In this document: piece by piece, positions 4,920 to 26,345 of the stretch
Layout: each line of letters starts with the position of its first letter
How positions within the stretch are numbered: the first letter of the stretch is position 1
Assembly (NCBI RefSeq): GCF_964194155.1
Contig: NC_135887.1
Location: forward strand, 21,204,001-21,268,000
Source of the DNA: Cetorhinus maximus
Taxonomy: Eukaryota
DNA: 64,000 nt
Reading direction: 5' to 3'
Program-made: the position numbers and the translations under genes
Notes under the pieces: generated by a model
What the model was told of the DNA's origin: nothing
Databases searched by the model: none
What the model saw: only the letters and a program-made list of their open reading frames with translations

Positions 4920-6410
4920 CAGGTGTTAGTACTCTCTCCCTCAATCAGTAGATAGTAGGTTCAAGCCCCACCCAGCTGTGGCTCAGTTCATAGCACCCTC
5001 GCCTTTGAATCAGAGGGTTGTGGGTTCATGTCCCACTCCCGGAAACCAAGAACTGTGATTGTACTCGAAAGAGTTGCAATCTGTGACTGTTGATAACTCG
5101 AGAGAGTTTCCATACTGCAGGAGGTGTCAGCTGTGGCTCAGTTCATAGCACCCTCGCCTTTGAATCAGAGGGTTGTGGGTTCATGTCCCACTCCCGGAAA
5201 CCAAGAACTGTGATTGTACTCGAAAGAGTTGCAATCTGTGACTGTTGATAACTCGAGAGAGTTTCCATACTGCAGGAGGTGTCAGCTGTGGCTCAGTTCA
5301 TAGCACCCTCGCCTTTGAATCAGAGGGTTGTGGGTTCATGTCCCACTCCCGGAAACCAAGAACTGTGATTGTACTCGAAAGAGTTGTGGCTGTTGATAAC
5401 TCGAAAGAGTTTCCGTACTGCAGGAGGTGTCAGCTGTGGCTCAGTTCATAGCACCCTCGCCTTTGAATCAGAGGGTTGTGGGTTCATGTCCCACTCCCGG
5501 AAACCAAGAACTGTGATTGTACTCGAAAGAGTTGCAATCTGTGACTGTTAATAACTCGAAAGAGTTTCCATACTGCAGGAGATGTCAGCTGTGGCTCAGT
5601 TCATAGCACCCTCGCCTTTGAATCAGAGGGTTGTGGGTTCATGTCCCACTCCCGGAAACCAAGAACTGTGATTGTACTCGAAGGAGTTGCAATCTGTGAC
5701 TGTTGATAACTCGAAAGAGTTTCTATACTGCAGGAGATGTCAGCTGTGTCTCAGTTCATAGCACCCTCGCCTTTGAATCAGAGGGTTGTGGGTTCATGTC
5801 CCACTCCCGGAAACCAAGAACTGTGATTGTACTCGAAAGAGTTGCAATCTGTGACTGTTGATAACTCGAAAGAGTTTCTATACTGCAGGAGGTGTCAGCT
5901 GTGGCTCAGTTCATAGCACCTTCGCCTTTGAATCAGAGGGTTGTGGGTTCATGTCCCACTCCCGGAAACCAAGAACTGTGATTGTACTCGAAGGAGTTGC
6001 AATCTGTGACTGTTGATAACTCGAAAGAGTTTCCATACTGCAGGAGGTGTCAGCTGTGTCTCAGTTCATAGCACCCTCGCCTTTGAATCAGAGGGTTGTG
6101 GGTTCATGTCCCACTCCCGGAAACCAAGAACTGTGATTGTACTCGAAAGAGTTGCAATCTGTGACTGTTGATAACTTGAAAGAGTTTCCATACTGCAGTA
6201 TATAATCCAGGATAAGACTCTTGTGCAGTACTGAGGGAGCGTGGAGGGCCAGCCATTTTGATTACACTAGCAAGGAGGTTCAGCTACTTTGCATTAAACT
6301 AAGTAACTGTCTTAACTGTTCTAGTCGTTCAGGTGGATGTTAAAGAACCCATGACACTGTTCAAAGAGCAGAAGTTTATCTGTGTTCCCTCAACAGTGAT
6401 TGCCATGTTT
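4920..6410 (+). mobile_element. SacSINE1/DeuSINE-like SINE split by a tandem array
   Basis: Decayed head with B box ggttcaagcccc at about 4958; body resumes at 6200 (gtgcagtactgagggag...ggtggatgttaaagaacccatgacact). Confidence 0.65.
4973..6198 (+). repeat. Tandem array, 8 copies of a 155-bp unit containing a tRNA-derived SINE head
   Basis: Units start at 4973, 5128, 5283, 5431, 5586, 5741, 5896 and 6051 (third unit 148 bp); near-identical; each has A box TGGCTCAGTT (TGTCTCAGTT in units 6 and 8) and B box GGTTCATGTCC. Confidence 0.97.
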
Positions 6411-15024: not shown

Positions 15025-15428
15025 AAAAAAAATTGCATTTATATCGCGCTTTTCACAACCACCGGATGTCTCAAAGCTCTTTACAGCCAATGAAGCATTT
15101 TTATAGCCACTGTTGTAGAGAGGAAACGCTGCAGCCAGTTTGCACACAACAAATGCCCACAAACAGCAATGCAATAATGACCAGATAATATGTTTTTGTG
15201 ATGTTGATTGAGGGCTAAACATTGGCCAGGATACTAGGGATTGCTCTCATGCTGTTCTTGAAATTGTGCCATGGGATCTTTTGTGCCTCATCCAAAAGAC
15301 AGCACCCCCAACAGTGCAGTGGTACGCTGGAGTGTCAGCATTGATTTTTATGCCCAATTCCTGAAGTGGGACTTGAAACCAGAACCTTGTGACAGGCAAG
15401 AGTGCTGCAAACTGAGCCATGTCTGACA
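15025..15428 (-). mobile_element. SacSINE1/DeuSINE-like SINE
   Basis: Reverse complement has TGGCTCAGTT, GGTTTCAAGTCCCAC, aaagatcccatggcac and L2-like tail gcgcgatataaatgcaa. Confidence 0.85.
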
Positions 15429-16177
15429 CAAATTAAATCTTCAGAATAGAAATCATCCTTTCAGAAAAGCGCCCTGTAAGTGAAGACAATAATGCAAATT
15501 TCGAATTTTAAGTAAATATACATTAGATGGGGTGAAATGGCATGCTAGAAGCTGGAATTGTGGTGTCAGCCTCAGATATTAACATAAAGTTTAGGTCAAG
15601 GGGCGGTTTCCTTGTAGCTTCTTGATATCATTATTAACATGATTAATATTAACATGTTTGAGAGAGGTGTAAGCCCTGTGATATTGTTGTAATTTTGTCC
15701 TATCTGCAGATCATAGAAGTATTAGGGTGAAAAGTAGTGGGAGGTTGTCTTATCTATGAGTTGCCTGAAATAGGAATGTAAATTGTGAAATTTTGGTATG
15801 AACATTGGACTGAGCAGTATGGTAACGAAGAGTTACAGTAGAACATGTAACTGTTCATCTGATCATTTGGGCAAATGAAACAAGGCAGAGATAAATTTAA
15901 AAAAATGGAATGATTTCACACATTCTATAATATTTGCATATTTACAAACTAGTGATTTACTTTGTTTTTTCACTGGCTTGTGAGTGGGATTTTTCATTCG
16001 CTGCCTCAAATTATAGGAAGGATTTGAGAGTGAACAGATCTTCATCACAGGAATATGTGCTTAAAGTCCAGCCATGTTTATTCTTATAAAGACATTAACT
16101 GGAGCTACTCGTGTAAATAACACCAATTCATGTTTAAAAGAAGGCACTTGAAATAAAGGTGCAGTACAGCATACTAT

Positions 16178-26183: not shown

Positions 26184-26345
<162 letters not shown>

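Follow-up and report, generated by a model that had tools for sequence, protein, structure and literature searches.

The question raised by this locus is how eight nearly identical units with tRNA-like heads came to lie head-to-tail within a host gene, and whether the array they form is a peculiarity of the locus or one product among many of a wider process. The window, by which we mean the entire stretch of 64,000 nucleotides from Cetorhinus maximus that was analyzed, was originally predicted to contain eight units of 155 bp at 4973..6198, and Tandem Repeats Finder bears out that the array is real (period 155, 8.0 copies and 96% matches at 4973-6198 of the window).

Anatomy and context of the array

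The units of the array differ at few sites; unit 3 measures 148 nt and unit 8 stops at the host sequence. The predicted period of 155 holds, as the sum of a 142-nt SINE and a 13-nt spacer, but the predicted unit start does not, the true SINE start lying 7 nt earlier. In the corrected register the array consists of one 5'-trimmed and seven full SINE copies, head-to-tail and on the + strand. Copy 1 (4973..5107) is without its first 7 nt, has no target duplication on its left, as is the case for the array as a whole, and carries a GAGA loop in hairpin 2, a variant that recurs in the full-length, 142-nt copy 2 (5121..5262). Copy 3 (5276..5410) has a 7-nt deletion in hairpin 1 and is followed by copy 4 (5424..5565), by copy 5 (5579..5720), whose private G98 is held in common with copy 7 (5889..6030), and by copy 6 (5734..5875), whose private T9 is held in common with copy 8 (6044..6185). 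Copy 8 abuts the target and was likely the first to be inserted, judging from the polarity of the mixed arrays discussed below. The 13-nt spacer (5108..5120, repeated at 5263-5275, 5411-5423, 5566-5578, 5721-5733, 5876-5888 and 6031-6043, + strand) is a target copy, identical to the first 13 nt of the array's right flank.

The host of the array is an older, decayed tRNA-head SINE, which we take to be akin to SacSINE1. Its 5' part (4925..4972, +, boundary approximate) forms the left flank, which ends in CCACC before the TTC start and thereby fits the target motif of the SINE family; the target sequence and the 3' part of the host SINE occupy 6186..6400 (+, end approximate). Another older tRNA-head SINE, with a canonical B box, lies at 15358-15429 on the minus strand and could serve as an outgroup for the family head. 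Downstream of the array, an open frame at 26184..26345 (+) contains a FANCJ/BRIP1-like helicase exon (Helicase_C_2), and exons of the same kind also lie upstream on the + strand (loci L241 and L243), which makes the array intronic and sense. The predicted position inside BRIP1 is upheld to that extent, the gene name itself being a presumption from sequence motifs.

The array is very young: its copies are 1-2 changes off the family majority, and CpG decay stands at 1.6% as compared to 10.4% in 113 other copies. The original description of a recently amplified, SINE-derived, multimeric insertion is upheld. The private variants shared by units 5 and 7 and by units 6 and 8 each occur in 0 of the 113 other copies, a pattern that fits block duplication of 5-6 to 7-8. 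The loop variant of units 1-2 is also present at other loci of the family, and more than one template may have contributed to the array.

Contigs of the best-matching sample, which may be the assembly's own source and which reach into the array by fewer than 31 letters (too few to span the eight units), track both array junctions without differences, with spacer depth 2.6-5 times that of the flank. In organisms D and F, orthologous contigs run along the left flank as far as 4971 before departing from the window sequence, and one of the two has zero depth over the SINE tail, from which it follows that the insertion is likely lineage-specific; loose ends in the search for an empty site proved to be a mixture of two contigs (agreement 0.65-0.67). 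Genome-wide, the pattern of the 13-nt spacer was found at the seven places in the window and at two places without a SINE tail. With this spacer at no other SINE locus, there is no sign that the window array has acted as a source.

A dispersed SINE family and its probable Tx1-type partner

The segment of about 70 nt that follows the head in each unit had been described as absent from the other SINE copies of the window and hence as unique, a view that a genome search overturns, with 33 of 41 places lying outside the array. It is the tail of a young, dispersed, 142-nt tRNA-head SINE: at 36 of 36 non-redundant outside loci the tail lies within one short element, the head also being present at most of them. 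A 19-mer from the tail has 9,753 exact matches genome-wide (control, 1), for a family size of about 10,000 copies, and a pattern that joins tail to head across tandem junctions has 2,142 (control, 0). With such numbers the array is no peculiarity of a single locus. At 68 loci per 100 junctions, we estimate that there are roughly 1,400 arrays; multimers make up 5 of the first 26 distinct, unselected loci, and roughly a fifth of family copies have another copy following them. The traits of the SINE class are present throughout, i.e., short, dispersed, non-coding elements of high copy number with target site duplications and 5' truncation. The copies end at a hairpin, with no poly(A) and no microsatellite, and are frequently flanked by target duplications, which are 12-17 nt long in 38 of the 39 measured. 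The literature search returned no account of this family, which is apparently undescribed; Repbase, Dfam and SINEBase fall outside that search, so deposition there is possible.

The subfamilies differ chiefly in what follows the B box. The simplest, ancestral one keeps about 25 nt of the older SINE past that box and has one hairpin, and the others have two hairpins and differing linkers; on this comparison the presence of two hairpins would seem to reflect duplication of a LINE-end signal. Some insertions end at hairpin 1, which suggests that either hairpin can direct priming. Non-CpG divergence is 1.6% in the ancestral subfamily versus 1.0-1.4% in the others. The bases just past the SINE also track subfamily (TAC in older types and TTC, TTG or ATC in the window's type), hinting at pairing between the RNA end and the target or at different partner lineages. 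Several loci have features of their own. Diverged copies (88-89%) at L031-L033 (G000:C63:455-485 kb) have been amplified inside a larger tandem repeat with identical flanks, and L026 has seven copies in tandem, an inverted one lying 123 nt upstream of them, and a short spacer that recurs at L030 on another contig. A variant found at L020, L129, L157, L172 and others has a T run right at hairpin 2, i.e., a built-in terminator that the window copies do not have.

The partner LINE emerged from the flanks of the arrays. In 6 of 68 arrays (all from contig C1) the 3' end of a longer element with the same hairpin lies directly to the left of the SINEs, with the same spacer between; exclusion-pattern searches for such a partner had returned 25 and 17 matches, all of them SINE variants or truncated copies. 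The LINE-end sequence has 492 matches, and 29 of 30 that were fetched align to the LINE. One copy encodes an intact 1,303-aa ORF2 with endonuclease and reverse transcriptase domains, which is 50% identical over 99% of its length to the 149-kDa protein of Xenopus TX1, and by this predicted protein the partner is a member of the Tx1 clade; Penelope, RTE and Vingi elements had been considered as partners and were dropped once the Tx1 ORF was found. The intact ORF2 is at L235:2882-6793 (G000:C1:75.74 Mb), inside a Harbinger-type transposon and between two SINE arrays. It is likely, on comparison of these sequences, that the SINE is mobilized by the Tx1-type LINE protein, although the stretch over which the tail of the one can be aligned to the end of the other is short, at about 20 nt. 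A further point against concerns the window's subfamily: the main LINE lineage ends at TAC or TAT in 30 of 30 loci, and the window has a TTC junction. Junctions of the TTC type occur in only seven matches, six of them LINE ends, of which four are from a sister lineage that is ~70-81% identical; the TTC junction is thus rare in the main lineage and commoner in the sister lineage. The Tx1 LINE also builds short-period tandems of its own. At L238 (G000:C1:92.05-92.06 Mb) there is a tandem of period ~1.33 kb with at least five units, each consisting of a truncated LINE and a truncated SINE.

Promoter-like and hairpin motifs had first drawn attention to the array. The A-box-like motif of copy 1 (4979..4990, +) is found at the same offset in every unit and its last base, A, is non-canonical; the B-box-like motif (5023..5033, +) reads GTTCATGTC, in which a T stands in place of the host SINE's A, the host SINE and the older SINE at 15.4 kb having TTCAAG. 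The A and B boxes of the original prediction are therefore present as motifs, but each is one position off the canonical consensus, and ARAGORN found no tRNA gene. The array units contain no T4, as had been noted; the first one downstream, and the nearest possible Pol III terminator, is at 6256 (6256..6259, +). In alignment, hairpin 1 of copy 1 (5058..5080, +) corresponds to the Tx1 LINE's 3' end, and hairpin 2 (5095..5108, +), at the 3' end of the SINE, would be a second, shorter copy of the LINE-end signal. Both fold better than shuffled sequences (z of -2.84 and -2.83), as predicted, although each has the predicted form with a GAAA loop in only five of the eight units. For hairpin 1 the exceptions are units 5 and 7, where the loop is GAAG, and unit 3 with its 7-nt deletion; for hairpin 2 they are units 1-2, with a GAGA loop, and unit 8, where the stem is altered. 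The loop of the LINE hairpin is of 5 nt or AAAA, and the GNRA loop is thus not conserved. The hairpins are best read, from this alignment, as the 3' recognition signal of the partner LINE.

The same motifs had led to a different proposal, namely that the array arose by a rolling-circle or retrozyme-like process and has hairpins that cleave themselves, or that the host gene has exapted it as a TFIIIC boundary. An array with no T4 could indeed give rise to read-through RNA. Nevertheless, an Rfam scan to E 10 matched no ribozyme family in the array, the sole hit being U6atac, below threshold and on the minus strand; the spacers are locus-specific copies of target DNA, arrays elsewhere mix subfamilies, the B box is non-canonical, the GNRA loop is not retained in the LINE, and the insertion appears to be absent in organisms D and F. 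A contig that spans a dimer with a different spacer comes from one sequencing run surmised to be RNA, and is of no use as evidence of expression. We regard this proposal, taken whole, as scarcely credible, and found nothing in support of the TFIIIC boundary reading, which is not supported.

Spacers, insertion order and the origin of the arrays

The spacers between copies are the most informative part of the arrays with respect to how they were built. Among 127 spacers in 66 other arrays (L197 and L204 were left out of this count because they run past the fetched stretch), 104 reproduce the local target; of the remainder, 12 are of foreign sequence, 8 consist of T only and 3 are direct joins. 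Two of the foreign spacers can each be traced to one donor locus on a different contig, whose 3' flank they match (L154 to L155 and L256 to L254), the match extending past the donor's duplication up to a T run; T3 occurs near the end of 6 of the 12 foreign spacers as compared to 7 of 66 control flanks. For two of the five foreign spacers tested no donor was found, and one foreign spacer recurs only as another internal spacer. Other small RNAs have been captured as well: a tRNA with a T5 trailer (L138:1299-1371) and a full-length 5S rRNA (L165:1301-1421) are each fused to the 5' end of a SINE copy. Donor trailers that reach to T runs, along with the fused tRNA and 5S rRNA, form the pattern expected of Pol III transcripts and of end-to-end template jumps, and these sequences are indirect support for transcription of the SINE family by Pol III into RNAs that would end at T runs. 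Jumps of this kind are known for R2 proteins, according to passages of PMC11371274. Separately, the spacer of L204 is the target duplication of L202 and that of L109 is like that of L110, the loci of each pair being 1.2-1.5 Mb apart on one contig; gene conversion or hopping over such local distances may be responsible, and the retrozyme-like proposal could draw on the same sharing, which could stem from multimeric RNA.

The composition of the arrays is equally instructive. They mix SINE subfamilies and LINE fragments, and in nine of nine mixed arrays the copy of ancestral type is rightmost (in one of them it is also leftmost; a sign test on the eight others gives p of about 0.008). Copy pairs differ on average at 4.96 positions within arrays versus 4.64 between unrelated copies, and adjacent copies differ at 4.63, being identical in only 1 of 59 pairs. 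Mixed subfamilies, polarity and within-array distances equal to those between arrays argue against duplication of a single copy or rolling-circle amplification; they favor target-primed insertion that took place repeatedly at the left duplication.

We consider it probable that the window array, eight copies of the dispersed young SINE, was stacked by repeated Tx1-type insertion at one site, followed by local duplication of blocks. SINE copies would be transcribed by Pol III as far as the next T run, and the Tx1 ORF2 protein would bind the terminal hairpin and nick a GCAnC|TWCM-like target, with reverse transcription primed just after the hairpin and a second nick 12-17 nt away giving rise to the target duplication. 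That duplication would restore the target on the 5' side, where the upstream motif is kept, and the next copy could land there; at the 5' end of its template the enzyme could also switch to a different small RNA, at the U-rich 3' end of the latter.

For TSD-(SINE-TSD)n arrays, passages of PMC11481361 put forward another route, in which the target duplications on either side of a single copy recombine unequally and give a dimer that then expands. Shared private variants do attest to local duplication in the window, L169, L136 and L204, and to this extent unequal recombination accounts for growth of the arrays, not for their origin. It cannot yield mixed subfamilies, pieces of LINE between SINEs, foreign trailers or, where the first copy is truncated (the window, L018 and L039), inner copies of full length, and the low frequency of identical neighbors also counts against it. 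As the main origin it is contradicted by the mixed arrays, and we judge it most improbable in that role.

A closer competitor to serial insertion is the reiteration of copying within a single event, in which the enzyme, having copied one RNA, would move to the overhang of the target, copy its 13 nt and prime anew on a different RNA; a founder array would then arise at once. Jumps between RNAs within one insertion are evident at L138, where the tRNA and the SINE lie inside one duplication; L009 has two spacer lengths with a common right border; and the leftmost copy of an array is often truncated without a duplication, as it is in the window. Equal distances within and between arrays would also be expected from a single event with near-consensus RNA, and the subfamilies barely differ in age, which weakens the serial reading and allows that the polarity may reflect a bias in initiation. 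Rightmost placement of the ancestral type in all nine mixed arrays is nonetheless not predicted by single-event reiteration alone, and we think this reading unlikely, favoring serial insertions, generations apart, over one event.

Target preference bears on the same choice. SINE and LINE share one hot spot in a Harbinger-type transposon (DDE_Tnp_4), a preference that is weaker for the window's TTC-type subfamily. Among the first 100 of 2,227 matches listed, 26-28 have this site filled, and with occupancy near 27% repeat hits are expected there without recourse to a single event. LINE insertions at L223 and L227 occupy a second site in the Harbinger-type repeat, ~50 nt off the main one and in opposite orientation, with a similar target sequence. 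Most arrays lie elsewhere (39 of 66 by script, where the hot-spot flag, set for 27 of 66, is a loose one that also takes in a few loci of doubtful status, e.g., L118, L128 and L200), as do 4 of the 5 multimers from the 26 unselected loci and 4 of the 9 polar mixed arrays. Outside the Harbinger site the target motif amounts to only 7.4 bits (n=24), from which we calculate that re-use by chance would occur about 2 times in 10,000, so that serial insertion there would need some further attractor. Single-event reiteration requires no long-range attractor and so accommodates the weak motif. Ordinary target sites are re-used far more often than chance accounts for.

One way in which this re-use could come about is that a resident SINE recalls the Tx1 enzyme to its 5' edge, for example through a bound Pol III complex or RNA-DNA pairing; another is that the enzyme cycles between the overhang and fresh RNAs. 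In either case a hairpin of ~14 nt would suffice to turn any small RNA into an insert that can be stacked and that has a site preference, and would open a direct route from SINE to tandem DNA. We put this forward tentatively, as a conjecture that is somewhat more apt to fail than to hold.

Relation to other tandem SINEs and significance

Tandem SINEs spaced by target site duplications (TSDs) are already known. The nearest relatives in kind are the crocodilian SINEU-3 elements, for which passages of Kojima 2015 (PMC4494074) describe tandem copies "sandwiching a TSD", mobilized by Tx1-Mar and ascribed to sequential insertion. In that paper the heads of SINEU elements are of snRNA type, their tail is poly(A), and the tie to Tx1 is by target and 5' ends, and Tx1-9_AMi is reported there to target Harbinger transposons. 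From what those passages contain, the present family is alike in being Tx1-mobilized (as is likely here), in sharing a site preference in a DNA transposon and in forming TSD-spaced tandems; it is unlike SINEU-3 in its tRNA-type head, in having no poly(A), in the 3' hairpin that it has in common with the LINE and in that most of its arrays are outside the hot spot. The TSD-(SINE-TSD)n arrays of the blood clam have the same architecture as those described here, so far as sections of Martelossi 2024 (PMC11481361) portray them: they run up to 4-15 units, occur in introns too, make up ~3% of SINEs and consist of highly similar units, and they were ascribed to unequal recombination. The present family differs in that about a fifth of its copies are in tandem and in that its arrays mix subfamilies.

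Other precedents come from further afield. Tandems of R1 and P elements in Drosophila, which arise by double insertion, keep the target duplication in the junction and later undergo unequal exchange (passages of McGurk and Barbash 2018, PMC5932611), are similar to the present arrays in their junctions and later growth, although R1 and P are autonomous and those passages describe no captured small-RNA trailers. Almost half the copies of the Dip SINE are in multimers, with up to eight full-length SINEs, according to portions of Vassetzky 2023 (PMC10702118), and a high multimer share is thus not unprecedented. In the squamate satellites derived from SINEs (sSats) that the same portions treat, the repeated unit is an internal portion of the SINE; the window units are whole SINE copies plus a target spacer, and assignment to the sSats was rejected. 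SacSINE1, a Deu-SINE of cartilaginous fishes, has a tRNA-type head, a Deu body and an L2-derived tail (sections of Luchetti 2017, PMC5499810), and the present SINE shares a head of this type but has no room for the body and has a Tx1-type end. We found in the literature no hairpin-sharing, poly(A)-less pair of a tRNA-head SINE and a Tx1 LINE, the repeat databases being outside this search, and in passages of PMC3747384 the word Tx1 is confined to phylogeny.

Taken alone, the window array, an ordinary member of its family, is unlikely to be of consequence. The significance lies with the family, in which a SINE and a Tx1 LINE form a young pair, ORF2 is intact, the 3' hairpin is minimal and poly(A)-less, and the order of insertion and the template jumps can be read from over a thousand natural products. 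It makes testable how a Tx1 enzyme chooses its RNA, how the 5' junction is completed and how sites are re-used, it bears on the origin of tandem repeats from retroelements, and it shows unusually clearly how such elements stack up and capture other small RNAs.
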